Part shown: one piece after another, positions 1,276 through 23,154 of the stretch
Layout of the letters: each line of letters begins with the position of its first letter
Numbering within the stretch: the first letter of the stretch is position 1
Virus record (IMG/VR): IMGVR_UViG_2585427757_000006
Direction: 5' to 3' (one strand)
Source: a virus
Taxonomy: Duplodnaviria; Heunggongvirae; Uroviricota; Caudoviricetes
Length of the DNA stretch: 64,000 nt
Made by a program: the position numbers and the translations under genes
The notes under the pieces: model-generated
The model's input: the letters and a program-made list of their open reading frames with translations, nothing else
What the model was told of the DNA's origin: nothing
Databases searched by the model: none

Positions 1276-4994
<3,719 letters not shown>

Positions 4995-5008
4995 AATTGT
5001 AAATTCCC

Positions 5009-6172
5009 TTAATCAAAATTCTTCTGTTTCATTGCCTCAGCCGCTTTTTGCAGCGGTCCTTTCAAGGCTTTTTCTAACTTTGTCATCTGCTCTAAGTGCC
5101 ACGCAACCGCTTGGGGCCACGTCTCTTTATTAAACCCATCAGCTTTGGTCGAAAACTGAATACGGCAAGATTTCTTCTCATCCAGCCTCATCCACTCAAG
5201 TTCTGCACCAAAAGCATGTTCAATGTCCTGTTTGGACTGACTCAACAAGTCAAAAAGGTATTTATTCTCTTCGGTAACCCCACGGCTGATCCAAAGCTCT
5301 ACTCGAAGCTCTTTTTGCAGAAATATCAGGTTATACGGACACCCACTTAACCCTGAGCCTGCTGATAACCAGTGATCTTTGCTTGGGCTAATGTTGTTAT
5401 AGAGTTGGCAAACGCTTTTCTGAAACGCCTCTAAGGCACGCTCCCAGTACTCGCGACGCACCGTATGGCGGTTTTTAAGGACCACTTCGGTGGTTTTTTC
5501 TTCCGCTTCCTTGGCATTAATGCCGATCATCAACTCTTTCGCTTCTGGCGTTGGAATGATCTGGTCAATATTAATCAGTAGCTGTTCACCCAGTGAATAA
5601 GGCGTGATTTTGAAGCAGGCAATGCTAATGCCTTGACCCAATAACCACAGCGCGGTGCTGGTCACTTCTTTGCGAAAGTTTGCCGCAACTAGCATAATAC
5701 GCTGGCTGTTACCCAGGTTGAGCTTTAACTCATCCAGATCGGGCGCATCCAAAAATTCACATATTCTCGCCGAAGCACTTGCAGGGGCATTTAACAGGTC
5801 AACCTCTGCTGTTACAGGCTCATAGCGATCTAAGTACTGCTGGTAAATGTCAACTATTTGTGCTTTGGTTAAACTGGCACAGTAAGAGGCATATTTAAGG
5901 GCCTGCCACACCACATCTCGGCCACTGTCGTCCAGCTTATTTTCAATAATGACCAAGTTGCCATCTTTATCCAGTGCCAGTAAATCTAATCGTTCACGGG
6001 TGTCATCAAAGCCATCGAACTCTTTTTGAATAATCAACAACTCTTCACCCAATGCGGAAGGTTCGTGTGCCAACCACTCCTGAAGATGCTTGCGCTCAGT
6101 AAAGCCCAACTCACTGAACTTCTTTGTCCTAACAGGACTAATCCTGTTAGTTTGATGATTTACCGTGAACAT
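5009..6172 (-). CDS. uncharacterised 387-aa protein embedded in the hsd operon; N-terminal PD-(D/E)xK-like nuclease motif
   Basis: Tightly packed between hsdS stop (6182) and hsdR start (4994); motif RLDLLALDKDGNLVIIENKLD resembles a D..E-x-K nuclease core; no Walker A. Confidence 0.5.
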   Translation of the reverse strand: MFTVNHQTNRISPVRTKKFSELGFTERKHLQEWLAHEPSALGEELLIIQKEFDGFDDTRERLDLLALDKDGNLVIIENKLDDSGRDVVWQALKYASYCASLTKAQIVDIYQQYLDRYEPVTAEVDLLNAPASASARICEFLDAPDLDELKLNLGNSQRIMLVAANFRKEVTSTALWLLGQGISIACFKITPYSLGEQLLINIDQIIPTPEAKELMIGINAKEAEEKTTEVVLKNRHTVRREYWERALEAFQKSVCQLYNNISPSKDHWLSAGSGLSGCPYNLIFLQKELRVELWISRGVTEENKYLFDLLSQSKQDIEHAFGAELEWMRLDEKKSCRIQFSTKADGFNKETWPQAVAWHLEQMTKLEKALKGPLQKAAEAMKQKNFD

Positions 6173-6181
6173 ATTCGCGTC

Positions 6182-7462
6182 CTATTGCTCAACCATTTCT
6201 GGGGTGATTTTTATTTTTCCTGTCACGGCGCTGTTGATCAGGGTGGTTTTGTATTCTTTAAGCTTTTCAATCTGCGACTTTTGGATATCAATCGTGCGAT
6301 TCAGATCTGGCTCAATTCCTTCAATGAACGAAATTATTTCTTGAATTTCATCTTTTGGTGGCACTGGAACCAATACACTTGCAAGACGATCCCTTGTTAA
6401 TTTTGGCTGTGCCGCACCAGAAATATATACCGTATAGTCCAATCCGCTTAATAATTCGGCCCAGTATTTAAAACCATGAAATTTTGGCTTAATAATATGT
6501 GCATGGTTATTCACCCAATACTTTCCAGTTGCAACAAAAGCCAATGGTGTTGACTTGCTTAGCAAATTCGCGCCATCTTCAGCGATCAAGATTAAATCTT
6601 CATCAAAGATGTAGTCATCAACATAATCGATAACACCACTTGCTCCGTAATACGGATATACGCCCTGTCTCGACTCTCTCTCAACTGCGCTTATTGGAAC
6701 TCTTCTACTGTTAAGAAACTCAAACGCATATCTCAATGACATTAAGTTCCAATGCGCTGGAATCTTACCAATCCAATCCACACCGGAGTCTTTCATTGGC
6801 ACATTGGGATCAAGCCCTTGGGTCACCGCCTGTTGGATGATGATCTGCTTACGCTCTTTCAGCAGGCTAATTTGCTGCTCTTTGATCGAAATCGCTTCGT
6901 CGATTAGAGCGGTTTTCTTGTCGAGAAAATTTGCAATTAGGGACTGCTCTTCTTCTGAAGGCAGAACAAAAGGAATCACCTTCATCCGTGCTTTTGAAAG
7001 GTCCCACTGACCAATCCTTACACCATCTGATGCACTACCAAAAAACGATACATATAACTTACTGCGTATCGCCCAATTGAAAAACTCAGGATTTATTGCC
7101 TTTGTAAAATCAAAAATAAAATACGCAGGACTTACAATTCCAGTGAACTTTGATACACCGTAAGAACCCTGCCACGCTTTCATTTTATTCATTCCAAATT
7201 GACCTTTCTCAAGCTTTTTATAGCCGCTAAGATCATCTGGTATAAAATTGTGATTTGACTCTTGATTATCCACGTCTCTCTCGATAACACCTTGTTCGCG
7301 TGTTATCGAAAGTAGTGGCAATTCAGGGCAGTTTTTGACCGACACCGGAGATAGGCACGAGCCTAACTTAACCAAGTCCCAATGCTCTGGAATCTCGCCA
7401 ATCCACTCATAACCAGAGTCACTATATTGATCATACTTTAGCGTTGAGGTAATGCTTTCCAT
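6182..7462 (-). CDS. hsdS: type I restriction-modification specificity subunit (426 aa, two target-recognition domains)
   Basis: Size and bipartite architecture; position between hsdM and hsdR; start overlaps hsdM stop. Confidence 0.85.
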   Translation of the reverse strand: MESITSTLKYDQYSDSGYEWIGEIPEHWDLVKLGSCLSPVSVKNCPELPLLSITREQGVIERDVDNQESNHNFIPDDLSGYKKLEKGQFGMNKMKAWQGSYGVSKFTGIVSPAYFIFDFTKAINPEFFNWAIRSKLYVSFFGSASDGVRIGQWDLSKARMKVIPFVLPSEEEQSLIANFLDKKTALIDEAISIKEQQISLLKERKQIIIQQAVTQGLDPNVPMKDSGVDWIGKIPAHWNLMSLRYAFEFLNSRRVPISAVERESRQGVYPYYGASGVIDYVDDYIFDEDLILIAEDGANLLSKSTPLAFVATGKYWVNNHAHIIKPKFHGFKYWAELLSGLDYTVYISGAAQPKLTRDRLASVLVPVPPKDEIQEIISFIEGIEPDLNRTIDIQKSQIEKLKEYKTTLINSAVTGKIKITPEMVEQ

Positions 7463-9891
7463 TAGGCTTCTCCCTGAACTTCCGCCACTTTCACGCCTAA
7501 TATTTGTGCAATCAAACCATCAGCCTTCTGCTCTAGATTGATAATGTCAGTTGCTACTTCTTCAAGACTACGTAATGGCTTATGCAGATAGAAATACTTA
7601 TTGAAGCTGATTTCATAGCCAATTTTTACCGTATCTAGGTTTATCCATGCTTCATCGACATGAGGCTTCACTTCATCTAGGAAGTACTGGTAAATGCTTT
7701 GCTTTAATGGAACAGATTCTGTATCTCGCAGGTCTGAATTGGTCTCGTAAGTGATATACTCGCCTTTTTTACCGCCTTCTGCTGAAGGAACGGGGTAATA
7801 ACCAAAATCTGGCAAGTCAGCGACTTCACACTCATAGCGCTCCAGCAGGTCGTTTAATTTATCACCCGTTAATTTAACTACCTTTTTAACCACTTTCTTG
7901 GCGGTTTCGTCATACCAGCTCACCGCGTGAAGAATGGCATTTTTCTCAGGTGCTGAAAGCTTAATAGCATGGGCTTTTAGCGATTTATCAACTTGGGTTT
8001 TAAAGCTATTGAAGTCATCAAATTCAATGCTACCGATGTCAGCCATCAGCGTTTGTGCAGTTTCAAGCAATGCTTTTAGCGCCAGCCAGTGTTTCACATC
8101 AAGCAGTTTGGCCTTAGCCTTAGCATTGAGACTGATGTCGTTATCTTCACACCAAGAAAGAATGTCTTTCTCGATGGATTTTAAGAAGCTCTTTTTCTGA
8201 TCTGACCCGTAGCCAGTTTTTTCGTAAACACGTTCGCCGTGCTCTGCGTACACGTACTCCATCACTTCACTAAGTTGCTTATCAAAACGCAGTGGGGCTA
8301 TGGCATCTTGAGTAAACTTGGCTTTGCGGCGATCTGGGCGCTCGATAGTGACTTTGTAGTAGCCAAAATCGTCATTGCTGAATACCTTACTGGCGATGCC
8401 AACAGGATCATTGTTTGCATCCAGTGCTCTTTCAACATCCTTACACGCGAGGTAAGTATCGGTAATTTCCGTGATGTGCTCAGGCGCAAATTCGCAGTTT
8501 TTGTTACCTAAGTTCTTGCGCAACTTACGGTAGAGCAAGCTGGCATCAATTAATTGCACCTTACCTTTACGCGCCTCAGGTTTATTGTTGCTCAACACCC
8601 AAATGTAAGTGGTAATGCCAGTGTTATAGAACAGGTTATTAGGTAACTGAACGATGGCATCTAGCATGTCGTTTTCAATGATGAAGCGACGAATATTACT
8701 TTCACCACCGCCCGCATCTCCGGTAAAGAGCGATGAGCCGTTATGAACAGAGGCAATCCGGCTGCCTAATGGACTTACGCTCGGATCTTTCATCTTGTTG
8801 ACCATCTCCATTAAGAAAAGCAGCTGGCCATCACTCGAACGTGGCGTGGCATCCACCACTTCGAGATTTCCCCAATAGTCTTTCAGGCTAACCTTAAAAC
8901 GCGGGTCAATCACATCACTGCCGTCTTTAATGTACTTCTGTTCAGACGCCCAACTCTTACCGTATGGCGGGGTAGACAACATAAAGTCAAAGCGTGAAGC
9001 CGCAAACTCGTCGGTAGACAAGGTTGAGCCTACCTTGATGTTCTCAGGGTTGTTACCTTTGATCATCATGTCCGATTTACAAATCGCGTAGGTCTCGTCA
9101 TTGATCTCTTTGCCGTAAAGGTAAATATCTCGGCTGTCGTTCGGGTATTTCTCTTCAATGAAGTTTTGAGATTCAGTGAGCATACCACCGCTACCACACG
9201 CAGGGTCGTAAACGGTCATGGTCAATGGTAGCTGCTCTTTCACTGGGTCAAAAACCAAGTGTGTCATCAGCTCAATCACTTCCCTAGGTGTAAAGTGCTC
9301 ACCGGCTTCTTCGTTATTCTCCTCGTTGAACTTACGGATCAACTCTTCGAACACGTACCCCATACCCAGGTTAGTAAGGGCTGGCATCTTGTTGCCATCT
9401 GGGTCTTCGATCGTTTCATGAGTTAAGTTGATGTAAGGGGAAACAAACTTTTCGACGACATCAAGAAGGACTTGCTTTGAGGCCATGTGACGAATTTGCG
9501 ACTTGAGGTTAAAGCATTCAATGATTTCTTTAACATTATCGCTAAAGCTAAGCAGGTACTCTTCAAAGTTGGCGAGTAATATCTGTTGGTTATTCGTTGC
9601 GGTGTTGAACAGGGATTTCAGGGTCCATTTAGATGTATTGTAAAAAACATAACCACTAGCCGCCTTCAATGGTTCATCATCAAGCTCCGTGGCTTGCATC
9701 TCTTCTTTTTGGAACTTGACCTCTTCAAGCACGGCTTCTTTGGTGGGTTCAAGTAACGTATCTAAACGTCGTAATACCACCATAGGTAAAATCACATCGC
9801 GGTACTTACCGCGAACGTACACATCACGTAAACAGTCGTCGGCAATGTTCCATATAAATGAGATGAGCTTGTTATGTACACTATGATCCAT
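7462..9891 (-). CDS. hsdM: type I restriction-modification N6-adenine DNA methyltransferase, long form (~809 aa)
   Basis: HsdM N-terminal motif FIWNIADDCLRDVY; SAM motif VYDPACGSGGML; catalytic FDFMLSTPPYG; likely start MDHSV at 9891 (ORF-track start at 9927 is a TTG). Confidence 0.9.
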   Translation of the reverse strand: MDHSVHNKLISFIWNIADDCLRDVYVRGKYRDVILPMVVLRRLDTLLEPTKEAVLEEVKFQKEEMQATELDDEPLKAASGYVFYNTSKWTLKSLFNTATNNQQILLANFEEYLLSFSDNVKEIIECFNLKSQIRHMASKQVLLDVVEKFVSPYINLTHETIEDPDGNKMPALTNLGMGYVFEELIRKFNEENNEEAGEHFTPREVIELMTHLVFDPVKEQLPLTMTVYDPACGSGGMLTESQNFIEEKYPNDSRDIYLYGKEINDETYAICKSDMMIKGNNPENIKVGSTLSTDEFAASRFDFMLSTPPYGKSWASEQKYIKDGSDVIDPRFKVSLKDYWGNLEVVDATPRSSDGQLLFLMEMVNKMKDPSVSPLGSRIASVHNGSSLFTGDAGGGESNIRRFIIENDMLDAIVQLPNNLFYNTGITTYIWVLSNNKPEARKGKVQLIDASLLYRKLRKNLGNKNCEFAPEHITEITDTYLACKDVERALDANNDPVGIASKVFSNDDFGYYKVTIERPDRRKAKFTQDAIAPLRFDKQLSEVMEYVYAEHGERVYEKTGYGSDQKKSFLKSIEKDILSWCEDNDISLNAKAKAKLLDVKHWLALKALLETAQTLMADIGSIEFDDFNSFKTQVDKSLKAHAIKLSAPEKNAILHAVSWYDETAKKVVKKVVKLTGDKLNDLLERYECEVADLPDFGYYPVPSAEGGKKGEYITYETNSDLRDTESVPLKQSIYQYFLDEVKPHVDEAWINLDTVKIGYEISFNKYFYLHKPLRSLEEVATDIINLEQKADGLIAQILGVKVAEVQGEA

Positions 9892-10051
9892 TTTCTTTTC
9901 CTGTTCAGTGTTGGTTGCACCCCACAAAGTTGCTGCAACGGCTTCACTATAAATTTAAAATTCTGTTCTTTCTGTAACGCCTAAATGGCCTCTACATCGT
10001 TCGATTAACTTGTTCTACCCGGCGCTAGATTTAAGTTTATGACACCATAAA

Positions 10052-10100
10052 GTGAATCGCCACAGGTTTAATAGACTGAATCGCCACAGGTTTAACAGAC
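10052..10100. repeat. tandem direct repeat, 2 x ~24 bp (TGAATCGCCACAGGTTTAAYAGAC)
   Basis: Two adjacent near-identical copies in the intergenic region between the lipoprotein gene stop (10124) and hsdM start. Confidence 0.8.
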
Positions 10101-10123
10101 ACCTCAGAGTCATTTAAGATGAC

Positions 10124-10315
10124 TTAAAGAGAGGTGTACAGCTCGGTATTCAGACCAGTCCACTGACGGCCAACGCCGACAACTTCACCGATACCTTTGT
10201 CTTCACCCAATTTGTTTACTTTGATGCCAACGTACCCAGGCTCAACACGATCGCAGCCTGTAAGACCCATTGTGCAAACAGCAGCCACGATCACTGCCAG
10301 TAAACCTTTCTTCAT
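10124..10315 (-). CDS. small lipoprotein (63 aa)
   Basis: Signal peptide with lipobox LTGC (MKKGLLAVIVAAVCTMGLTGC). Confidence 0.5.
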   Translation of the reverse strand: MKKGLLAVIVAAVCTMGLTGCDRVEPGYVGIKVNKLGEDKGIGEVVGVGRQWTGLNTELYTSL

Positions 10316-10318
10316 TAC

Positions 10319-10519
10319 TTACTTCCCCTTCGAATTAATTAGTGACTTCAGAAAGTTACGACCAACATTAAAGCCGATAACAGGAGCGCCAAAAGCAACA
10401 ATGATTCCAAGCATTACGGCAATATCGCTTTTAGCCGAGATCAGCGACGGAACCAGCAAACAGTAGATGAAAACTACAGATATACCTGTAGCCACTGCCA
10501 TCAGATAGAGTTTGATCAT
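10319..10519 (-). CDS. small membrane protein (66 aa, two predicted TM helices)
   Basis: Hydrophobic segments LMAVATGISVVFIYCLLV and VMLGIIVAFGAPVIGF. Confidence 0.45.
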   Translation of the reverse strand: MIKLYLMAVATGISVVFIYCLLVPSLISAKSDIAVMLGIIVAFGAPVIGFNVGRNFLKSLINSKGK

Positions 10520-10609
10520 GTGTTTTCCTATGTGGCTATTGTGTGTAGATGGTGAGTAAGTGTTTATATATTTTCAAGGTATAAAGGCGTCCATTCGGAC
10601 GCCTGAAAA

Positions 10610-11683
10610 TTAATCTTCTAATTCATCTGTCGGTGATGTCTTCTCGCGCCTGTCATCTATTGCCTGTAACGCAGCAATGATTTCAGCTAATGGCTTCTCC
10701 CGGTACATCTCGACGATCTGTGATTTGGTGTATTTCTTCTCGCCAATTTCCACACGCCCGCTGGCGCTCTTGGGCAGGTATCCTTCCTCCAGCATGTATT
10801 CAACCAGAGACTCGACGACGTCCAGCCCGCGAGTCGGGTCGAAGTAGAATTTCCATGAGCATTTGCCAAACGGAGGCGCGACTTTGTTTTTAATGCACTC
10901 GGCGCCAACGTCCTGTCCGATCTTCTCTTTGCCATCCTTCATGACGGATGCACCCAGACGGATGCGCACCGACGCGTAGAACTTCGGAGAGTCGCCACCC
11001 GGAGACGTAGTCGGATCGCCAAACATCACACCAATTTTGGTACGCACCTGGTTCAAGAAGATGATGCACGCGTTGTACTTACGCGCCCAAAGCGCCAGAG
11101 TAGGGAAGTTCGCACTTGTCGCGCGCGCCAGCGCCGTGTTGTCGTTCATGTTCAGCTGATCTTTGTCTTTCGCAGTGCCTTCTGCCATCTTGTCGAACTT
11201 CTCAGCCTTCGAGTTCGGAACCATCGACGCCAGAGAGTCGGCTACGATGCAGATAGGGGCTGTTTCCGGAATAAGCTCTTCGTCGCGCACCAGCTTGAGG
11301 ATTGTGCCGATCAGCTCTACGGAGTCTTCGAAGGTATCCGGCTGTTTGTAGACCCACTGACCGTCATCCTCATCTGCGTTCAGGCCATTGGCTACAGCCA
11401 GGCCAACGTCAAAACTGTTTTCATGATCGAGGAATACCGCCAGACCATCTTGTTTTTGAGCGGAGATCATCGCTGCTGTTGCAAGGAACGTTTTCCCTGC
11501 ACTTGGAGGACCGAATACTTCGACGATACGACCACATGGGAAGCCGCCATCGTAACGACCAGAAATAGCTTTGTTTAACGGTGGAAAGCCTGTATCAATC
11601 CAATGAGTTACTTTCTGAATTTCGTCGTTGCTACCGATTTTCTTTTTCAGAGCAAGTGCCAGTGCGGATTTTCCTTTTGCCAT
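10610..11683 (-). CDS. RecA/UvsX-family recombinase
   Basis: RecA-like Walker A GPPSAGKTFLA and RecA-type N-terminal region FPPLNKAISG...GRIVEVFGP. Confidence 0.8.
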   Translation of the reverse strand: MAKGKSALALALKKKIGSNDEIQKVTHWIDTGFPPLNKAISGRYDGGFPCGRIVEVFGPPSAGKTFLATAAMISAQKQDGLAVFLDHENSFDVGLAVANGLNADEDDGQWVYKQPDTFEDSVELIGTILKLVRDEELIPETAPICIVADSLASMVPNSKAEKFDKMAEGTAKDKDQLNMNDNTALARATSANFPTLALWARKYNACIIFLNQVRTKIGVMFGDPTTSPGGDSPKFYASVRIRLGASVMKDGKEKIGQDVGAECIKNKVAPPFGKCSWKFYFDPTRGLDVVESLVEYMLEEGYLPKSASGRVEIGEKKYTKSQIVEMYREKPLAEIIAALQAIDDRREKTSPTDELED

Positions 11684-11685
11684 GA

Positions 11686-11958
11686 TCAGGCTCCTTTTGT
11701 TTCGTTGATTCGTTTTAAAGCGGCGGATTCGTCGAATACAATCGCATCGTGGTTAAGGAGTCTGGATACACGAGCGAGGATTTTTACGACCTGCTCGCTG
11801 ACTAATCCAAACTCGCGATCTGTCGCTTTCATTCCGGCAGCGCCTAGAATTGACGGCAGTGCGATGACAGCGTACTCACCGTGATAAAAGACAATCTCTT
11901 TTGCCAGTTGGGCAGGGGTGGTTGTAGCGCCATTGATAATCGATTTAAGCATTAGCAA
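11686..11958 (-). CDS. hypothetical protein (90 aa)
   Basis: ORF track; packed between recombinase and exonuclease genes. Confidence 0.4.
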   Translation of the reverse strand: MLMLKSIINGATTTPAQLAKEIVFYHGEYAVIALPSILGAAGMKATDREFGLVSEQVVKILARVSRLLNHDAIVFDESAALKRINETKGA

Positions 11959-12947
11959 TACCTTTCGAATGGAAGAACAAACACTTCAAGGTCTTCAAGG
12001 AACGAACGGAAATTCAGCTCGTAGCACAGTTGCTCGAATGCTTTCACGTCACGATTGCCTTTGATTGTTTCGATTTCGGTAGGCGGAAACTTCGTCTCAA
12101 TCAGGTTCATTAGCGTGATGTTTCTCTTGAACGCTTCGAGCATTCGACAGCCTGTTTTCTCGTTGAAGGCATTCTTCGCTAGTTTGTTGAAGGCGGTCTT
12201 ATGGCGTCCTTTGTCAACCACGATTGAGCCGTCGTTGATGCCGCGTACCATCGTTGCGACACTTCCCCATTCATGCAGCAGCTCTTTCGCACCGCCAGCA
12301 CCAATGCCACCAACACCGCTAATGTTGTCCGATTTATCGCCTTGTAATGCTTTTGCTTCCAAAAATGCGCGAGGAGTAGCGAATCCTGTCAGCTCCGCAA
12401 ATTGCTCAAAATTAACCTGCTTGTTTTTGGCGTCTTCGCGCAGGCTTACCCAGCTTACGTTTTCGCGAACTAACTGAAGCCAGTCGCTATCGCCTGTTAA
12501 CAGATAGATGTGTTCAACGATTGGCTGCGGTGCAATGCTGGCTACCAGCAGCCCGGCCAGATCATCCGCTTCTGCATCTTTTGCAATGAGTTGGGTAACT
12601 CCAAGCGCGGTCATCATTTTGAGGATGTATGGCTTCTGGATAGCAAAGCCTTCCTTCATCTTTTTCATATCAGGATCGTCGTCGCGATTTGCTTTGTAGT
12701 CCGGGTAAAAGTCGCGACGCTTGTCACTAAATCCATCCCAAAGAATCATAGGTCGGGCATGGAGGATGGAGGCATAACGACGGACGTTCTTAACAAAGCC
12801 GAAAGCAGCCTGTACTTCCATTTCGCCGTTGTGCAATTTGTCAGATTGTTGGTGGTAATAACCCAGGCTATTGCCATCTACGAAGAGATAATTCACCGGT
12901 ACATTCCTTCCAAAAAGTAAGGCGTCCGTAGACGCCTTACTGGTCAC
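11952..12947 (-). CDS. 5'-3' exonuclease / flap endonuclease (T4 RNase H / T5 D15-like)
   Basis: LFVDGNSLGYY, GDSDWLQL and helix-hairpin-helix GDKSDNISGVGGIGAGGA motifs. Confidence 0.85.
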   Translation of the reverse strand: MTSKASTDALLFGRNVPVNYLFVDGNSLGYYHQQSDKLHNGEMEVQAAFGFVKNVRRYASILHARPMILWDGFSDKRRDFYPDYKANRDDDPDMKKMKEGFAIQKPYILKMMTALGVTQLIAKDAEADDLAGLLVASIAPQPIVEHIYLLTGDSDWLQLVRENVSWVSLREDAKNKQVNFEQFAELTGFATPRAFLEAKALQGDKSDNISGVGGIGAGGAKELLHEWGSVATMVRGINDGSIVVDKGRHKTAFNKLAKNAFNEKTGCRMLEAFKRNITLMNLIETKFPPTEIETIKGNRDVKAFEQLCYELNFRSFLEDLEVFVLPFERYC

Positions 12948-12956
12948 GTAATGGGA

Positions 12957-13985
12957 TTACAGAGAGTCCAGCTCTCTCAGTAGGTCATCCAGACCTTCAT
13001 CTTCCGTCGCAGATGCGGCTGCTACAGATGTCGCTGCGACTGCTTCAGACTCTTTGACTGATACTGCAACGGCAGCGGGACTTGCTTCTGGTTTAAATTC
13101 AGTTTCAACGGCACGGAGGATTTCTTCATCAACCAGACTGGTTGGTTCAGAAGCTGGGGTATGAGCGGTAGCTACAGCAGTCGCACCCTCCGTATGACCA
13201 GTGACAGAGCCAAATCCAGGTAGTGCCGCAGCCGATGTTTTCGCGGTTGAGGAAATTGCTGGTGCAGATGCTGCGGCAGTTGGTGCAGCGATGCCAATCA
13301 GACGACCCATAGTGCGAACTGTCGACAGAAGACGAGTTTCATCAGCCTGATTTGCGTATGCGATCAGATCATGCTGGGTGTTCCAGAATTTATCTTCGAT
13401 ATCGCCTTTGTAGACTTTACGCTTAGGCGAGACGTCATATTTGGTATCGCGACCAGAGCCAGTACGTTTAATCAGGAATGCGTAGCCTTCCTCTTTGCTC
13501 AGTGGATTGCCGATATCATCAGCGATGTCTTCGGTGATTGCTTTGCAGATATCATCGAATACAGTAGACGGCAGCTCGATTAACTGGCATTTCTCAGCAT
13601 CTGCGAAATCCTCACGAGCAGAAAGAATGCCGTTGACCAGGTAGCGAGGAGTGGCACGCATTTGACCGATGCGTTCTTCCATTGCTTTGTTACCCTTGTG
13701 ACGAGCGCGACCTTCCATCACCATTTCGCATAGCTGACAAGCGCGACCGTGAGTATGTTGCTCACAAATATAAGCGTTGGTTGCTTCTTTACCTTCCTCG
13801 TTCTGATACTTAACGTAGTGCATACCGAAAGTCTGGAAGAACTTACCGTTTGGGTCGTCTTTATTCGGGAAGATGCGGATATAGTTGACGCCGTCTTTTA
13901 AGCGAGTCAGATCAACGTTGTTACCACGTTTGGCGGCAATGTCTTCACGAGTTTTGTTAAGCAAATCAAGTAATGTCTTAGACAT
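12957..13985 (-). CDS. T4 gp32-like single-stranded DNA-binding protein
   Basis: IRIFPNKDDPNG and zinc motif CEQHTHGRACQLCE resemble gp32; Ala/Ser/Thr-rich linker; acidic C-terminal tail EDEGLDDLLRELDSL. Confidence 0.7.
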   Translation of the reverse strand: MSKTLLDLLNKTREDIAAKRGNNVDLTRLKDGVNYIRIFPNKDDPNGKFFQTFGMHYVKYQNEEGKEATNAYICEQHTHGRACQLCEMVMEGRARHKGNKAMEERIGQMRATPRYLVNGILSAREDFADAEKCQLIELPSTVFDDICKAITEDIADDIGNPLSKEEGYAFLIKRTGSGRDTKYDVSPKRKVYKGDIEDKFWNTQHDLIAYANQADETRLLSTVRTMGRLIGIAAPTAAASAPAISSTAKTSAAALPGFGSVTGHTEGATAVATAHTPASEPTSLVDEEILRAVETEFKPEASPAAVAVSVKESEAVAATSVAAASATEDEGLDDLLRELDSL

Positions 13986-14102
13986 GTGTTTCTCCTTGTT
14001 GTGATTTGGCCGATGGCGCTATGCGCGTTGGGCTTTCGTTCATTCGTGGCTCTTTCGAGCTGTTAAATGATAGATCAGTACTTACTTATTATCTATCAAA
14101 AA

Positions 14103-14558
14103 TCAACGGGGAGTAATAAAGCGTTCAGAGCCTAATCGCTCTAATTCAACGATGGCCATCTTTGACGCCTGAACGATCATGTCTCGGCGATGCGAAAAGG
14201 CGGCGACAGCATGTTTGTATATGTCTGCGATGTGCCGTGCTTCATCCAACTTCTGCCTTTTAGACAGATACTGTGGGTTTGTTTTAACCTTAGCGTCCAG
14301 TACAGATTCGTTGAACTTAATGCCGTTCATACTCAAGTTCTTACGCTCTGTGTCGTATAGCTTTGCTTCAACAGCTTCAAGGTTAAGTTTTGCCTCTGCG
14401 ACACTTCTTTCTGCATGAGCGAGTTTTGAGCCATACTCCATTAAAAGGCGGGGTTGTCTACGCCAGACTTCCTCCAGATTGTCTCGGTCAAACTCGAGAT
14501 CAGACATTATTTTCTCGTAAATATCGGCGATCATGCACATTTCCTTATCACTTATCAT
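14103..14558 (-). CDS. hypothetical coiled-coil protein (151 aa)
   Basis: ORF track; same strand and operon context. Confidence 0.45.
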   Translation of the reverse strand: MISDKEMCMIADIYEKIMSDLEFDRDNLEEVWRRQPRLLMEYGSKLAHAERSVAEAKLNLEAVEAKLYDTERKNLSMNGIKFNESVLDAKVKTNPQYLSKRQKLDEARHIADIYKHAVAAFSHRRDMIVQASKMAIVELERLGSERFITPR

Positions 14559-14660
14559 TTTGTATTGATTATATCATTGTAATGATGAGGCAATGAGCTT
14601 GAAGATAGGGGGGGTGAGGGGATAAGGGAAAACATGGCCTTTATGGCCATGTTTATTGGA

Positions 14661-15830
14661 TCACGTCTTAATAGTTTCTGCTACGTCGGCTAATATCGCT
14701 TCTAGTCGTTCTCCCTCTTCAGGTCTGAAGTAAAGAATGTTGGGGTTAAACCCGTAAAAGACAGTAACGTCAAGGTCTGGAAGATACTCCTTCCTGCCGA
14801 CCAAATCGGATGGCTTGTTTTTGTTGTTAAACAATGAAGTTGCCCGGCTGCCACACGTCAGCACATAGGTCGGACGCACCAGATTGATCTCTTCACGCAT
14901 AAAGTCGGTGAACTGGCCGATCTCGTCTTTGGTGTAGTCTTTTTCTTTGTCTTTAACCTTCTTGCAAACACCTGTGACATAGAGATCGCCCATGCGTAAA
15001 TCTCCAGCCGTCAATAGCTTGGCCTTAAAGTCGTCGTATCCGTTCTCCATAAAGTAACCGGTTCGAGCATCATTGCCGTTCGCATTGTCCAGAATGATCA
15101 TGATTTTCGGCTTAATACCAATGCTGGGGCGGATTAGTTCATCACCTAAGCCCATTTCAGCCGCCATCCGCGTCATGAGTACGTTAATTTCAGCCGAACG
15201 TTTGGGGTTCATCTCAAACGGACGTGAGGCTTTAACTGCGTCTATGACAAGGTTTCCCATCAATTCAGCCTGGTCGCGTAGGCGCTCTGGATCAGTTGCT
15301 GGCAGACTGCCTGGCTCGATGGATGCAAACGCCCCTACTTTTTGCAGCGATTCGCGCACTCGACTATTACAGGCACGTTTCTCGACAGCTTCTTCGAATT
15401 GCGCCAGTGACTCGAATTTGCCGCCAACTTTTTCTCGCGCTCTCATGATGGCTTGGCAGCCATTCTCAGAACACCCCTTCACAGCAGAGAAGGGCGCATA
15501 CAGCACCTGGCTGCCATCTTCAAGCGTGCGGATCTCGATTCGGTTAGATGACACGTTAACGTCTGGTGGCAATACGCGAATGCCATAGGTCAGCGCATCT
15601 TTAACCAGCCCCTGGTGTTTATCTTCGCCAAGAATAGTGAGAGCAGCAGCGAAAAACTCTGCGGGATAATGAGTTTTCAACCACATAGATTGATAACTGA
15701 TTAAGGAGTAAGCAACAGAGTGTGATTTGTTGAAGGCATACGCGCCGGATTTCTCAAACATATTCCAGATTTCTTCGGCTCGTTCGTGCGTCAGGCCATT
15801 GCTCTCTTCGACAACACCGGTAATTTTCAT
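14661..15830 (-). CDS. dnaE: DNA polymerase III alpha (DnaE-type) C-terminal segment
   Basis: FNKSHSVAYSLISYQSMWLKTHYPAEF matches the conserved DnaE motif; ATG overlaps the HNH gene stop. Confidence 0.8.
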   Translation of the reverse strand: MKITGVVEESNGLTHERAEEIWNMFEKSGAYAFNKSHSVAYSLISYQSMWLKTHYPAEFFAAALTILGEDKHQGLVKDALTYGIRVLPPDVNVSSNRIEIRTLEDGSQVLYAPFSAVKGCSENGCQAIMRAREKVGGKFESLAQFEEAVEKRACNSRVRESLQKVGAFASIEPGSLPATDPERLRDQAELMGNLVIDAVKASRPFEMNPKRSAEINVLMTRMAAEMGLGDELIRPSIGIKPKIMIILDNANGNDARTGYFMENGYDDFKAKLLTAGDLRMGDLYVTGVCKKVKDKEKDYTKDEIGQFTDFMREEINLVRPTYVLTCGSRATSLFNNKNKPSDLVGRKEYLPDLDVTVFYGFNPNILYFRPEEGERLEAILADVAETIKT

Positions 15831-16561
15831 GCAGTCACCTCATCAATCTTCACGAACTCATCCCCATTGGAGGCCAGCCAGTTCCGTTGGCGCTCCCAGC
15901 TCCATATCTCTTCACGCATTTCACTATGCAGGCGAATGTGGGCGTCTTCTGGAAGTGCTACAAGATTCCCAGGGGCGTTATCTATCGTATCGCGGTTAAT
16001 ATGGTGGACATGTTCATCGTCACGTAGCTCCCGACCGAGACGTTCTTTCGCTATCAATCGATGAACGTATTCGTATTGCGAAACGCCATTGTTACCAACC
16101 AGCTGCATCATGTAGCCGTTGGTTTTTACGATGATGCCACCTTTGTAGTTGTTCGCTTCTTCTCCGATCTTTCCGCGTTTGGCAGCCGCCAGCTTTTCCT
16201 TCGTCTCCGCGCGGATTGTTCTGCCGGTTAGCTTTTTCGAAACGGTGGCCACTCGCTCATCGATATCAGCACGCAGACCGGCATTCCACGAGGTTTTCCC
16301 ATACATAGGGTTGCCAGTGCCAGTCCGGGCTTCGGAGAGACGCTTCATACGTTCGTCATTATTTTTGTTTTTGCCACGATTCCAGGCTGGGGTAGCGGAG
16401 ATCCGCGCGCTTCCGCGCCTGATCCCCCATTTGGCTAATAAGCGGTCAATATTTGCCTTGCTGCAACCAGCTTCGGCGGCAATGTCTTCTTTTCTCATCA
16501 GGTCAACCATGTAACGCTGACGTAACCATTCTTCTGTGATTTTGTACTTCGTACTCGGCAT
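15827..16561 (-). CDS. HNH homing endonuclease inserted between the two dnaE segments
   Basis: HNH motif HVHHINRDTIDNAPGNLVALPEDAHIRLH; N-terminal NUMOD-like repeats (NPMYGKTSWNAG, GRTIRAETKEKLAAAKRGK). Confidence 0.85.
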   Translation of the reverse strand: MPSTKYKITEEWLRQRYMVDLMRKEDIAAEAGCSKANIDRLLAKWGIRRGSARISATPAWNRGKNKNNDERMKRLSEARTGTGNPMYGKTSWNAGLRADIDERVATVSKKLTGRTIRAETKEKLAAAKRGKIGEEANNYKGGIIVKTNGYMMQLVGNNGVSQYEYVHRLIAKERLGRELRDDEHVHHINRDTIDNAPGNLVALPEDAHIRLHSEMREEIWSWERQRNWLASNGDEFVKIDEVTA

Positions 16562-16609
16562 TTCTAAGACTCACTAAACAAATTGTTTTCTTATCTTATA
16601 AATTAATTC

Positions 16610-18973
16610 TCAAATATCGAAGCTCGTTATGTCGGCATTTATTGCCATTGCTTCGGCATAAGTGCGACGCTCACCATCAGCACAAAGTAGGCGTGCTGCT
16701 TTATGGATTTTTCTCGTAGAACCATCATCCAGTGACACTGTCACCCAGCCTTCCTCCGCTCGCTTAATGAAGTCGCCGCCAATGGATTTCATTTTCTCCA
16801 TATCTTTTTTCCCGATCGCTTTCCTGACCGAGTCTGCTTCCGCCATTGAGAACCCCGCCAAGATTCGCGTAGCAGCCATGATCTGTTCCTGATAAATCAG
16901 AACTCCGTTTGTGTCGCGAGAGATGTCGTCCAGCATTGGGTGTAAGGAATGTGGGGCCATGAAGCCTTTGGCCACGGACACATAATCGTCCAACATGCCG
17001 GATTGAATCGGGCCAGGTCGGAAGAGCGCAGTTGTAGCGACGACCGTTTTAAAGCTCATTGGCTCAATTCCACCACCTAAATCTTTAAGCAGCTTGCGCA
17101 TTGGGCCTGATTCAAGCTGGAATACGCCCTGTGTATACCCTGCAGCAAAACCATCCAGCACCTTGCGATCTTCAAGAGAAATGGCATCAAGATTGATATC
17201 TTCACCTGTGTTCTCTTTTATGTAGCGTTTTGCACTATCGAGCAAATCGAGAGTTGCCAGGCCAAGCACGTCCAGCTTAATTAGGCCCATAGCCTCGCAG
17301 TAACGCTTGTCAAATGCGATACAACGCGCGTCACCACGGCGTTCAACCGGTGTACGTTCTGTCAGAGGAACACCTGCTACGATCATCCCTGCCGCATGTC
17401 TACCAAAGCCACGCATAAGGCTTTGTAACTTGCAGGCTGCATTGAATGCATCAGGATATTTTGTTGCGTATTTGTCGAGACTTGCCAGTTGTTCGCGCAG
17501 CTCTTCCAATGGAAGGCTATCATCCTCGACGTTCTTCAGTTCTTTTGATACCGCCATATCTGCGGACTCCACACCATAAATACGAGCGGTGTCACGTAGT
17601 GCAGAGGCTGCGCCCAGGTAGGTGAAGTTCGGAATGCCTGCAACGTAATCTTCGCCGTAGCGTTCATTCAGATACTCGATCACCTCATGGCGACGTGCCT
17701 GGCTGAAGTCCAAGTCCGCATCCGGCAAGTCGAGACGCTCAGGGTTGATGAAACGCTCAAACAGAAGACCGTGACGGATTGGGTCGACGTTGGTTATGCC
17801 TATGCACCACGCCACCAGAGAACCGGCAGAGGAACCACGACCAGGCCCAACGGGAATGCCAGTTTCACGACTATGATTCATCAGATCGCGCACCATCAGG
17901 AAGTAACCACAGAATCCCAGGCGAGTCAGCGTGTCCATTTCGTACTTTAGCCGCTCAACATAAACCCTGTTCTCAGAAGCAGGTGGTGTGTATCCAAACT
18001 CTTTTGTGGTAAGACGTTTACGCAGCCCTGCAACAGCCAGTTTCATCAGCGTTGCAGGTTCGTCGTCTGCCATCTTGGGCAGTGCTGGTGGCAATTCATG
18101 CCAGCGCCATGTGCAGGCATCGATAATGGAGTCCTGCGTTGTTGAGGCCATTGCAGCTGTTACCGGCACATCCATGCGAACGGAGAAGGCTTTAAGCGCC
18201 TCAAGGAGATGGCGACGACCATTGATGGCGTTATCTCGCTGGTGGGGGATACGCAGACGATGCGGCTGGTCGATTTTTATGTTGTTCGTAACCATGTGCG
18301 CAATGTCTTTAATGTCTGCATCGTCGATCGATTCGTAATAAGCGGGATAGAACGCCACTGGCTCTATTTTCAATGCGCTGGCGACTTTCATCGCCCGGAC
18401 GTTAATCTGGTCGTAGAATGGGGTAGGGTGCGGATAAACCACACTATAGAAGTTGTCTTTTCCACCCGCTGTAATCAGTGTGCTTATGATTTTTGCAAAA
18501 TCGTTGCGTTGGAACACGCTACCGATGTCGGAAGTAAGCAGGATGATGTTGCCTTTGGCATATGTAGAAACCAACTGTTCGAGCGAGAGACGCGGCACAA
18601 AGTAGAACTGTTCTCGTGTGTTGGCCACCGTCATTAGTTCGCAGATGTCGCGATATCCTTGCTCATTTTTAATTAGAGCGGTAAACGAGTAGTTACGTCC
18701 CCGCTCTAATGATTCCATACATCTCATAGATTCTTTAGCAAGTTTAGCCCGGTGCTCGTATGTGGGATCATCAACAATGTTTAGTTTCACACCACAAATA
18801 ACCGCCATGTCGTCACCAGCGGCACGTTGTAGTGGAATAACGCTCGCAATATTCATGCTATCTGCTGAAATTACAGCGGTGTAGCCAGCTTCTCTGGCAA
18901 TCTTCACCGCGTTTTCAGCTTTTAGAGCCGACTCCCCAAGTGAGAAGTCAGTTCGAACCATCAGTGCCTTCAT
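16610..18973 (-). CDS. dnaE: DNA polymerase III alpha (DnaE-type) N-terminal segment (PHP plus polymerase core)
   Basis: GPGRGSSAGSLVAWCIGITNVDPI and LIKLDVLGLATLDLL match conserved DnaE core motifs. Confidence 0.85.
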   Translation of the reverse strand: MKALMVRTDFSLGESALKAENAVKIAREAGYTAVISADSMNIASVIPLQRAAGDDMAVICGVKLNIVDDPTYEHRAKLAKESMRCMESLERGRNYSFTALIKNEQGYRDICELMTVANTREQFYFVPRLSLEQLVSTYAKGNIILLTSDIGSVFQRNDFAKIISTLITAGGKDNFYSVVYPHPTPFYDQINVRAMKVASALKIEPVAFYPAYYESIDDADIKDIAHMVTNNIKIDQPHRLRIPHQRDNAINGRRHLLEALKAFSVRMDVPVTAAMASTTQDSIIDACTWRWHELPPALPKMADDEPATLMKLAVAGLRKRLTTKEFGYTPPASENRVYVERLKYEMDTLTRLGFCGYFLMVRDLMNHSRETGIPVGPGRGSSAGSLVAWCIGITNVDPIRHGLLFERFINPERLDLPDADLDFSQARRHEVIEYLNERYGEDYVAGIPNFTYLGAASALRDTARIYGVESADMAVSKELKNVEDDSLPLEELREQLASLDKYATKYPDAFNAACKLQSLMRGFGRHAAGMIVAGVPLTERTPVERRGDARCIAFDKRYCEAMGLIKLDVLGLATLDLLDSAKRYIKENTGEDINLDAISLEDRKVLDGFAAGYTQGVFQLESGPMRKLLKDLGGGIEPMSFKTVVATTALFRPGPIQSGMLDDYVSVAKGFMAPHSLHPMLDDISRDTNGVLIYQEQIMAATRILAGFSMAEADSVRKAIGKKDMEKMKSIGGDFIKRAEEGWVTVSLDDGSTRKIHKAARLLCADGERRTYAEAMAINADITSFDI

Positions 18974-19151
18974 GTGTTTTTACCTTTCTGGTTTTTTTGA
19001 TTTTGTCATTGGGGAAGCCTACGAACTTCCCATGCATCGAAATCGCAACTTCTTTTGCTGATTGGTGACAATCGGGCTTGTCTGGACACACCAGACAAGC
19101 CTTACCAGTTTCAGAAGCAGCGATAAGAGAGCCGAAACATCCTTTACGCAC
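18948..19151 (-). CDS. small Cys-rich protein (67 aa)
   Basis: ORF track; CLVCPDKPDCH cluster. Confidence 0.3.
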   Translation of the reverse strand: MRKGCFGSLIAASETGKACLVCPDKPDCHQSAKEVAISMHGKFVGFPNDKIKKTRKVKTHEGTDGSN

Positions 19152-19153
19152 GA

Positions 19154-20389
19154 TTAACCAAATATTTTTTGAACAACTTCACGAGCCGCTTGTGCAGAAG
19201 CTGAAGGGAGTTTGTTAATGAAAGAACGCTCAATACCTGTCACAAAGTCGCCTCGCATCATTCCAATCTTGGCCGACAACAAAAGTTCACGAGGGCCAAT
19301 TGGCTGACTAATAAGGTGTTCTTCGTATCCATCGCGAACGATACCGGCAAACTTAACCATCTTTTCAGCGTATTCATCCACGATGCCTGCATTTGTCAAC
19401 ATGTTGATCTCTGCGTCTTTGCTCATGTATTTCACATTCGAAACGATGCCAAAACGCGAAAAGTTCGCGGCGTTCTGGATGTTTGTACCCTGGTACAAGC
19501 CGGTTTCATCACCAGATCCGTTCGTGTTGCCAGTGCCAATGAAAGCAAACCGTTCATGCGGAGTAATGCGACGCCATTCTGGAGTTGCCTCTTTGATGAC
19601 CAACGCTTCACCTTCCAGCACTGGCTGATACACGCCAAGAATTTGTGGAAACGCAAAGTCGTATTCATCCGCGAGGTAAACCCAGCCATGCTTCATTGCG
19701 AGCGCAAGCAAGCCAGGTTCGAAATACGTAGAGCCATCACGCGCCAGAATTTGCCCCGTAACATGTGCCTCTTCCATTGATGCTGTATGTTGGGCACGGA
19801 TCAACGGACGATTGAGCAAAGCACATAGCTGTGTAGGCAATGACGATTTGCCTGTTCCTGCATGACCCCACAAATAGCCAGGTATGCCAAGTTCAAGCAT
19901 CATGAAAATATCTTTGATCAGTTCGAAGTCGCCATATACGTAGCCTTTCTTCACTTCGGGAACGAACTCTGGATACGGCGTATTGACGTTGACGCTAACC
20001 ATGAGCGGCGTCCCACGTTTTGTTCCGAGTTCTTCCACCGTTACGTTTAGCAGTTCGTGAGCTGCGACCAGATCTGTCTTGTACTCAACTGTGCCTGTGT
20101 AGCCAGGGCTACTGGTCAAGCCAGAAGATTTGGCCATTTCGCTTTTTTGCTCGGCACGTTTAGCTTGAATTGCATCAAGTGCCTTTTTCGATAGCGTTGG
20201 TTCATCTGGAAACTGCGTTGTGTACATTTTCAGTACGGTGTCAGGATCGGCATCTTTTACTGACTCAGGAATGCCCTCGCAATTACCATTGGCTACATGG
20301 GACTTAAAATAGTGAAATGATTTGCCGCACCACTTGCAAACAAGGTAATCAGAAGGATTTTTTTCATTTTGCAGTGCAGTAGTCGTCAT
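19154..20389 (-). CDS. AAA+ ATPase, CobS/MoxR-like
   Basis: Walker A GHAGTGKSSL; N-terminal Cys cluster CKWCGKSFHYFKSH; paired with a vWA protein upstream. Confidence 0.8.
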   Translation of the reverse strand: MTTTALQNEKNPSDYLVCKWCGKSFHYFKSHVANGNCEGIPESVKDADPDTVLKMYTTQFPDEPTLSKKALDAIQAKRAEQKSEMAKSSGLTSSPGYTGTVEYKTDLVAAHELLNVTVEELGTKRGTPLMVSVNVNTPYPEFVPEVKKGYVYGDFELIKDIFMMLELGIPGYLWGHAGTGKSSLPTQLCALLNRPLIRAQHTASMEEAHVTGQILARDGSTYFEPGLLALAMKHGWVYLADEYDFAFPQILGVYQPVLEGEALVIKEATPEWRRITPHERFAFIGTGNTNGSGDETGLYQGTNIQNAANFSRFGIVSNVKYMSKDAEINMLTNAGIVDEYAEKMVKFAGIVRDGYEEHLISQPIGPRELLLSAKIGMMRGDFVTGIERSFINKLPSASAQAAREVVQKIFG

Positions 20390-20484
20390 GCGTTTTTCCT
20401 TTGTTCTCTAATGAGCGTTCAACTTCTTATATAAATATATCATCATCTATCGTAAGTAGTTACTTATCGTTAAGGCTGTTTTGT

Positions 20485-22593: not shown

Positions 22594-22691
22594 GGCTAAT
22601 CCTTTGTTATGAAAACAAATTATTTACTAGTGTGTTTAATGTAGCACTGCGCGAACAGGGAACTAAGCCATTCGCGCAGGGAGAAGAGGGG

Positions 22692-22904
22692 TTAACAGAT
22701 TCTGACGGCTAAAGACCCGGAGCCGATATTGAGAAGCGTGAAGCGTTTGTTGTTAAGTTCGAATATAAAGCCAGTTGTGTCATTCACACCAACCTGAATC
22801 TGCTCATTCGGTAGATCGGTGAGGATGTCAGCTACACACTCATCAGCTAATTTCTGTACGTGTCCGATCTCAAGAGCGATTAGGCTGGAAATAGTGGTGT
22901 TCAT
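22692..22904 (-). CDS. hypothetical protein (70 aa)
   Basis: ORF track only. Confidence 0.3.
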   Translation of the reverse strand: MNTTISSLIALEIGHVQKLADECVADILTDLPNEQIQVGVNDTTGFIFELNNKRFTLLNIGSGSLAVRIC

Positions 22905-23154
22905 TCAATCAATCCATTCTAACTTATACTATGGTAAGGAATACTACTAAAATTTATATCAATACTGAATACATTCATATCATATGCAAGTTAATTTTCT
23001 TACCTGTTTTGGGCTAATTTTTCTCCGTGCAATGGCCTTTAACCGGTCTTTTAAGTGTCTATCGAAAAAATGATAATAGCTTTACAACCCTAACCTTTGA
23101 TGTAATATCGGTAAGCACTTACCAGAGAGAATTGAACGCGCAAAGGTTGTAACA

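Follow-up and report, generated by a model that had tools for sequence, protein, structure and literature searches.

A predicted PD-(D/E)xK nuclease with a DUF4268 domain, member of PDC-S11, nested in a mobile type I restriction-modification cassette

Here we describe gene X, an open reading frame (ORF) encoding a 387-amino-acid (aa) protein at positions 5009..6172 of the minus strand in a 64,000-nucleotide stretch of viral DNA (IMG/VR virus record IMGVR_UViG_2585427757_000006, Caudoviricetes); this whole stretch is called the window throughout. Gene X lies between hsdS and hsdR of a type I restriction-modification (R-M) operon. To judge from profile matches, its product belongs along its entire length to PDC-S11 (phage defence candidate, single gene 11), with a predicted PD-(D/E)xK nuclease domain joined to a DUF4268 domain. 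We consider it reasonably likely that X is an autonomous, type IV-like, modification-dependent nuclease that works independently of nucleoside triphosphates (NTPs) and is nested in a mobile type I cassette.

Family membership, domains and predicted fold of X

The match of X to the PADLOC PDC-S11 profile PDLC04913 runs from residue 1 to residue 383 and covers positions 1-373 of the 375 in the profile (E 1.4e-182, 604.8 bits), and the seven further PDC-S11 profiles (of eight) match X at E values of 1e-30 to 1e-67. PDC-S11 and X have an identical two-domain architecture and no structural difference was apparent between them. The gene itself, taken from the ORF list and supported by the PDLC04913 match and by an AlphaFold2 (AF2) model, begins with ATG, and the coordinates given above include its stop codon. 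That the ORF is real, far beyond chance, follows from its thousands of full-length homologues: there are 7432 matches at E<=1e-5, and clustering at 50% identity leaves 5527 groups with E<=1e-3, of which 472 reach E<=1e-30, with the architecture of ~370 aa kept. The exact X protein occurs on 63 public contigs.

The C-terminal domain, residues 238-372 (5057..5461, minus strand), is recognized by Pfam as DUF4268 (PF14088); the match scores 135.9 bits against a gathering threshold of 27 (E 1.2e-39) and spans positions 1-138 of the 140 in the profile. An earlier note on this DNA had recognized no match for the last ~150 aa of the protein, a gap that this Pfam match fills. Three relatives of X bear the domain in tandem, with four copies in P0177, three in P0206 and five in P0244, which suggests that DUF4268 is a modular binding unit.

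The N-terminal domain, residues ~1-206 (5555..6172, minus strand), is a predicted nuclease of the NucS/RecB-type PD-(D/E)xK class. Its catalytic core, D63...E77-x-K79...Q90-xxx-Y94 (5891..5986, minus strand), is invariant or at least 99% conserved, and the peptide RLDLLALDKDGNLVIIENKLD, in which the earlier note had seen a PD-(D/E)xK-like core, corresponds to residues 61-81 of X. When X was aligned with 100 full-length homologues, reaching down to ~32% identity, all 101 sequences had E26, D63, K79 and Y94, and conservation was 99% for both E77 and Q90 and 96% for E51. The same pattern recurred in independent alignments of 69, 24 and 130 sequences, with E77 invariant in the alignments designated A3 and A4, and the catalytic signature is intact in 80 of 80 genomic loci irrespective of context as well as in a copy from a Klebsiella plasmid.

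When a profile built from the 130-sequence alignment was run against the sequences in the PDB, D63/E77/K79/Q90/Y94 aligned with D160/E174/K176/Q187/Y191 of Pyrococcus abyssi NucS at identical spacing; this marginal NucS match (E 0.046) was the only one, and nothing in that search matched DUF4268. Family profiles gave only sub-threshold matches to the N-terminus of X (NucS_C, PDDEXK_4 and the NCBIfam NucS equivalogs). We nevertheless regard the PD-(D/E)xK assignment as solid because of the comparative conservation and the NucS-like spacing of the conserved residues, so that the core proposed in the earlier note holds up, with a QxxxY motif following it and NucS as its best match. X is accordingly predicted to have nuclease activity.

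Prediction from the single sequence of X gave a predicted local distance difference test score (pLDDT) of 43.6, and the AF2 model made with the 130-sequence alignment, with a mean pLDDT of 86.8, was used instead. The model consists of an N-terminal alpha/beta domain (~1-206), a long connecting helix (~209-252) and a compact C-terminal domain. The conserved residues lie on strands 62-67 and 73-78, with Q90 and Y94 on helix 88-99, and the nuclease domain contains the restriction-endonuclease-like alpha-beta-beta-beta-alpha-beta fold. In fold comparisons this domain is best matched by NucS, and its other neighbours include Can2/Card1, Shedu SduA and Hachiman HamA. The DUF4268 domain is modeled as an alpha/beta domain with a fold like that of secretion chaperones and YbjN, and its tryptophans are conserved. 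A viral fold search with X yielded one real match, Gp54 of Bacillus phage G, the remainder being noise.

PrrC/RloC-type anticodon nucleases occupy the same hsdS-hsdR slot of type I operons as X does. The earlier note had held that X is not of this type, and we likewise rejected its membership: no Walker A motif of the form [AG]xxxxGK[ST] was found in X, no ATPase family appears among its Pfam, NCBIfam and PADLOC matches, and it has neither an ABC ATPase domain nor an anticodon-nuclease domain. Its predicted substrate is DNA, in contrast to the tRNA cut by PrrC/RloC. We also rejected membership of X in the GmrSD/TgvAB enzymes, as Pfam detected neither DUF262 nor DUF1524 in X and only the accessory DUF4268 domain is held in common. 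X is not a NucS/EndoMS protein proper either, its scores being 15.7 bits against a cut-off of 24 for NucS_C, 23.4 against 216 for NF003270 and 17.4 against 252 for NF002876. The similarity to NucS is limited to the catalytic core (positions 117-202 of 250 in the NCBIfam profile; NucS residues 159-192 in the PDB alignment). Moreover, the nuclease domain of X is N-terminal and followed by DUF4268, whereas that of NucS/EndoMS is C-terminal (Pyrococcus abyssi 2vld; Thermococcus 5gke), and the context of NucS/EndoMS is repair while that of X is defence and mobile elements.

Operon, genomic contexts and mobility

Pfam, NCBIfam and PADLOC identify the genes flanking X as those for HsdS, HsdR and HsdM, which makes the type I R-M trio complete, and the operon reads hsdM-hsdS-X-hsdR with all four genes on the minus strand. 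The specificity gene hsdS (6182..7462, minus strand) encodes 426 aa with two Pfam Methylase_S domains and a match to PADLOC Specificity_I, and hsdR (1977..4994, minus strand) encodes the restriction subunit of 1005 aa with Pfam HSDR_N, ResIII, SWI2_SNF2 and T1R_D3-like domains; the HsdR motifs are kept, with the nuclease residues D155...E169-x-K171 and a DEAH box at residue 431. For hsdM (7462..9891, minus strand) we take the ATG at 9891 as the start, giving 809 aa with Pfam HsdM_N and N6_Mtase domains and a match to PADLOC MTase_I at E 3e-266; the mechanically called ORF, 7462..9927, opens at a TTG at 9927, and annotated relatives are 809 aa long. Our ORF list and the profiles of the flanking genes bear out the placement of a 387-aa ORF between hsdS and hsdR given in the earlier note, with a gap of 9 nucleotides (nt) between hsdS and X (6173-6181) and one of 14 nt between X and hsdR (4995-5008). 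Both gaps contain an AGGA-like Shine-Dalgarno sequence. A scan of the operon for promoter and terminator signals between the genes found none above the expectation from shuffled sequence, a result that is uninformative on transcription units. The tight gaps on a common strand speak for the co-transcription that the earlier note had called almost certain; we rate co-transcription of hsdM-hsdS-X-hsdR as plausible.

To describe the contexts in which X occurs we sampled 80 loci from species-representative genomes carrying X homologues at 50-84% identity and mapped the hsd genes around them by tblastn and iterated hidden Markov model searches. Among the 43 well-flanked loci, that is, those with at least 5 kb on each side of the X homologue, 18 have hsd genes on both sides, 9 have them on one side and 16 (~37%) have no hsd gene within 8 kb. 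PDC candidates were named for recurrent embedding in BREX, DISARM or type I R-M systems, and such embedding is also seen for X (18 embedded and 9 adjacent of the 43). In those 16 loci and in the Klebsiella plasmid copies there is no hsdM within 8 kb, as expected of a type IV enzyme, which needs no cognate methyltransferase; this statement covers hsdM and not other types of methyltransferase, which were not systematically searched.

The type I systems that house X homologues fall into three or more unrelated families, with HsdM proteins of ~800 aa carrying SNPPYG, of ~580 aa carrying ANPPFN and of ~900 aa carrying ANPPFSQNY. Their position in the operon also varies. A search for the same gene order in other genomes, as proposed in the earlier note, showed that hsdM-hsdS-X-hsdR does recur and that other orders and hsd-free loci occur as well: the X homologue lies directly between hsdS and hsdR in loci L004, L005, L009, L023 and L065, between them together with one to three other genes in L006, L015, L016, L019, L021, L024, L025, L051 and L072, after hsdR in L020 and L078, and before hsdM in L010 and L035. 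The co-embedded genes (SoFic, RhuM/Fic of PDC-S23/S05, Schlafen/AlbA_2-HATPase_c_4 and an IetS-like protease) are stand-alone defence cassettes.

The X family needs no obligate partner. When the neighbours within three genes on either side were clustered across the 80 loci in search of a conserved partner gene, the largest family had 6 members. At hsd-free loci the neighbours are mixed, with a few defence genes (MmeI-type IIG, NERD, AbiEii-like ATPases, NYN) among housekeeping genes. An X homologue of 51.7% identity is present on 227 Klebsiella plasmid records, of IncFII type; in one example (L083; NZ_CP028178.1, 27-5376) it stands without hsd genes beside a pair of SIR2 and ATP-binding genes and a Tn3-family transposase.

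The cassette itself is mobile. The backbone of the window, compared over 10500-30000, is SSU5-like, with 97.5% identity to Escherichia phage CMS-2020a, 96% to Cyrano and 81% to Salmonella phage SSU5, and the window is close to the E. coli plasmid pNT1F31-113kb, which bears RepB and DnaE. At one edge of the cassette, directly downstream of hsdR, lies a remnant of an IS3-family transposase (1276..1962, minus strand), identified as an ORF; pNT1F31-113kb has an annotated partial transposase of IS3 at the equivalent spot. Upstream of hsdM (9930-10600) there are ~680 nt of non-coding or pseudogene DNA where a relative has a truncated SPFH gene. A search of a phage collection found no full-length X homologue, and the deposited phage relatives are without the R-M/X cassette. 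Because of the IS3 remnant, the truncated backbone genes at the edges and the lack of X in the phage relatives, we regard the R-M/X cassette as an acquired insertion in the phage-plasmid.

The same four genes, at ~98-99% identity, are also found in E. coli chromosomal islands rich in insertion sequence (IS) debris, and a 98%-identical cassette resides between rumAB and traI in integrative and conjugative elements (ICEs) of the SXT/R391 type (L085-L090; for example L085, 4212-18495). The ICE copy is preceded by a gene for a BrxR-like WYL regulator that the E. coli phage-plasmid copy lacks, and is followed by a CBASS operon (CD-NTase and SAVED-HNH). Carriage on ICEs accounts for near-identical X proteins in Vibrio, Alteromonas, Morganella, Providencia, Shewanella and others. 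The literature on hotspot 5 of SXT describes an ICEVchInd6 with a type I R-M system and hypothetical genes, which may be a further copy of our cassette. The cassette is present in 64 of 5426 complete E. coli genomes. In plasmid pLR-46_1 (L084; NZ_AP027538.1, 7719-13196), IS26 has deleted hsdM together with all of hsdS except a 150-aa fragment, and the plasmid retains a 100%-identical X together with hsdR. Taken together, these copies show that the cassette moves as a block among ICEs, chromosomal islands and the SSU5-like phage-plasmid.

Proposed function and its alternatives

Genes lodged within Hma, BREX, DISARM and type I R-M systems frequently prove to be defence systems in their own right, and PDC candidates were derived from such embedded genes (Payne et al., bioRxiv 10.1101/2024.01.29.577857). 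The string 'PDC-S' has 0 occurrences in the main text of that study, and it is from the PDC naming that we infer an origin of PDC-S11 in the embedded-gene screen. The argument of the earlier note, that embedding in a type I operon points to a role in defence, has therefore already been made systematically (Payne et al. 2024). That PDC-S11 is listed as a defence candidate and that independent defence genes occur inside type I operons are both documented, and our findings leave these views standing.

More specific expectations for X come from two published enzymes. MdgA and MdgB, recovered by functional metagenomics, are single-gene DUF4268 nucleases that protect E. coli against T4 and not against unmodified T4-GT7 (PMC12366544; Cell Host Microbe 2025). 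Purified MdgA degrades T4 DNA, its activity on T4-GT7 DNA is significantly reduced and its E77A derivative is inactive (PMC12366544). MdgA/MdgB and X are alike in carrying a nuclease and DUF4268 in a single gene and in being widespread across phyla; MdgA comes from a metagenomic insert for which no type I context was reported, whereas X is inside a type I operon. In 65-92% of X family members the catalytic Glu falls at position 77, and this coincidence with the numbering of MdgA is suggestive of MdgA belonging to the X family. By analogy, X probably works like MdgA, and we expect its nuclease to depend on DNA modification as MdgA and MdgB do. X combines its two domains in one polypeptide, and its stand-alone homologues alone lead us to expect that this polypeptide would be sufficient for defence.

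GmrSD type IV enzymes recurrently carry DUF4268 as an accessory domain (Machnicka et al., PMC4619093; Jablonska et al., PMC5714182), and the second of these studies predicted that it binds DNA. We favour a modification-reading role for the domain because it is fused to GmrSD, MdgA and MdgB and is present in tandem copies in relatives of X. The nesting of a type IV-like enzyme within a type I system is plausible because of the precedent of TgvAB, which is embedded in the type I R-M genes of Vibrio pathogenicity island 2, much as X lies inside such genes, and is an independent type IV system against hypermodified cytosines (Vizzarro et al., PMC11411939). TgvAB consists of two proteins, with DUF262 NTPase/sensor domains and a DUF1524 His-Me nuclease, whereas X is one protein with PD-(D/E)xK and DUF4268 and no NTPase. 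TgvAB and the host type I system have been proposed to be complementary against modified and unmodified DNA (PMC11411939). Finally, we favour autonomy of X from the Hsd proteins because of the hsd-free loci, the varied type I hosts and positions, the lack of a conserved partner and the IS26 case in pLR-46_1.

On this basis we propose that the DUF4268 domain of X would select DNA with bulky or hypermodified bases, such as the glucosyl-hydroxymethylcytosine (glucosyl-hmC) of T-even phages or the adenine modified by Mu Mom, and that the NucS/RecB-type PD-(D/E)xK site (E26, E51, D63, E77, K79, Q90, Y94) would then degrade the DNA so selected. The type I enzyme encoded beside X would handle unmodified DNA, while hypermodified DNA would tend to escape it, and the four-gene cassette would thereby cover both classes of invader. 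X would sit in a tolerant hsdS-hsdR junction, where it would be co-expressed and co-mobilised with the hsd genes. If this proposal is true, the cassette packs two layers of restriction into a compact module, with type I directed against unmodified and X against hypermodified DNA, and a temperate phage-plasmid that carries it could exclude T-even-like competitors from its host. Target recognition by DUF4268 is of wider interest, as the domain is fused to several type IV enzymes while its predicted fold matches no known modified-base reader.

Several observations weigh against an autonomous, modification-dependent X. The closest subclade (at least 55% identity, L003-L030) is hsd-linked in ~24 of 28 cases, mostly directly between hsdS and hsdR, and junctions as short as 9 and 14 nt point to tightly linked expression of X and the hsd genes. 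The modeled fold of DUF4268 resembles none of the established modified-base readers (SRA, PUA/EVE, McrB-N). Homology of X and MdgA would rest on the shared DUF4268 domain, the E77 numbering and the wide distribution, and the one mention of PDC-S11 found in the literature is a weak correlation in haloarchaea, a literature search having found no functional test of the family. Because DUF4268 has a chaperone-like fold in the model and the nearest relatives of X are strongly linked to hsd genes, three of the alternatives that follow (another cue for the sensor, coupling to the type I complex, and a guardian role) stay in contention.

The alternative that survives best, while in our view unlikely, is that X is an autonomous nuclease in which DUF4268 senses an infection cue other than DNA modification, for instance a protein of the phage, the ends of DNA or an intermediate of replication. 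The modeled fold of the domain, which is not that of a known modified-base reader, would suit this idea, as would the inclusion of the cue-activated Can2/Card1, Shedu SduA and Hachiman HamA among the structural neighbours of the nuclease domain. The recurrent fusion of DUF4268 to the modification-dependent GmrSD, MdgA and MdgB points the other way, as does the modification-dependent cleavage by MdgA in vitro.

The earlier note had suggested that X is a coupled second effector of the type I system, that is, physically or functionally dependent on the type I complex. In variants of this idea HsdM/HsdS, or HsdR as it translocates, would bring in X to make a second cut, or X would be licensed by the methylation state that the type I enzyme reads. 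The tight junctions on one strand, the lack of an internal promoter or terminator signal and the linkage seen in the closest subclade are what one would expect of such coupling, and the four genes travel together at ~98% identity across genera. Against it stand the several unrelated type I host families, the variable position of X and the presence of unrelated defence cassettes in the same slot; the hsd-free copies, found at 16 of the 43 loci and on Klebsiella plasmids, which keep all catalytic residues; the intact X of pLR-46_1, where IS26 destroyed hsdM and hsdS; the HsdM of the window itself, with its probably inactivating TPPY motif (described below); and the published DUF4268 nucleases, which act as single genes. 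These data do not support X as a coupled second effector, and we judge such dependence to be quite unlikely.

We allow a small chance that the X subclade is functionally tied to type I as a fail-safe nuclease, fired by its DUF4268 sensor when hypermodification of phage DNA or an anti-restriction protein blinds the type I enzyme. If that were true, DUF4268 would be a new type of modified-DNA reader or a protein-sensing switch within a restriction system.

A guardian role following the logic of PrrC/RloC seems to us improbable. Here X would be silent until an anti-restriction protein (Ocr, ArdA or Stp-like) disables the type I enzyme, and the released X would then degrade DNA indiscriminately, as in abortive infection. 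X does lie in the PrrC slot, and PrrC is almost exclusively embedded in type I R-M systems (bioRxiv 10.1101/2024.01.29.577857); the protein-binding, chaperone type of fold predicted for DUF4268 could also sense a protein rather than DNA. Yet X lacks a PrrC-like NTPase or regulatory domain, many of its homologues have no hsd neighbours, and MdgA distinguishes purified modified from unmodified DNA in vitro with no partner. It is very improbable that X is a housekeeping repair nuclease related to NucS/EndoMS, acting on mismatched or branched DNA and in the operon by chance. In its favour, NucS/EndoMS proteins are the only sequence and structure relatives of X with known function and one UniRef entry labels an X homologue 'Endonuclease NucS'; against it, the scores fall far under the NucS family cut-offs with similarity confined to the catalytic core, and the distribution is patchy and on mobile elements (ICEs, plasmids, a phage-plasmid, IS-flanked islands), as in the 64 of 5426 E. 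coli genomes.

The type I system of the window and a neighbouring gene

Two features of the type I genes set this element apart from near-identical cassettes. First, the catalytic motif IV of HsdM, of the general form (N/D)PP(Y/F), reads TPPY here in place of NPPY: codon 307 (8971..8973, minus strand) is ACC, for Thr, and in relatives it is AAC, for Asn. One A-to-C substitution separates it from the codon in near-identical E. coli relatives; NPP[YF] is found in each of the 29 other HsdM homologues with motif IV covered and in the comparison cassettes of pNT1F31-113kb and E. coli ET474 (L001/L002). The exact T307 protein is present on 2 public contigs only, so the allele is real and rare. Type I methyltransferases lose methylation when NPPY/NPPF is replaced by APPA (PMC5100572). 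Given the TPPY motif and this precedent, this element may have an inactive methyltransferase and perhaps no working type I system at all, assuming that a single N-to-T change has a comparable effect.

Second, the second target recognition domain (TRD) of HsdS (6182-6750, residues ~239-426) shows ~150 differences, from residue 239 on, from the HsdS proteins of the same two comparison cassettes, which are otherwise 99% identical. By this sequence comparison the two kinds of second TRD are unrelated and the TRD has been swapped, which should change the recognition sequence. The exact HsdS protein occurs on 32 contigs.

Beyond the cassette, a RecA-like gene (10610-11683, minus strand; 357 aa) is an intein-free allele. 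Its orthologue in pNT1F31-113kb is 779 aa long and annotated as 'LAGLIDADG family homing endonuclease'; the RecA-like protein of the window matches this orthologue at residues 1-76 and 487-779, which places an insertion of ~410 aa in the plasmid protein.

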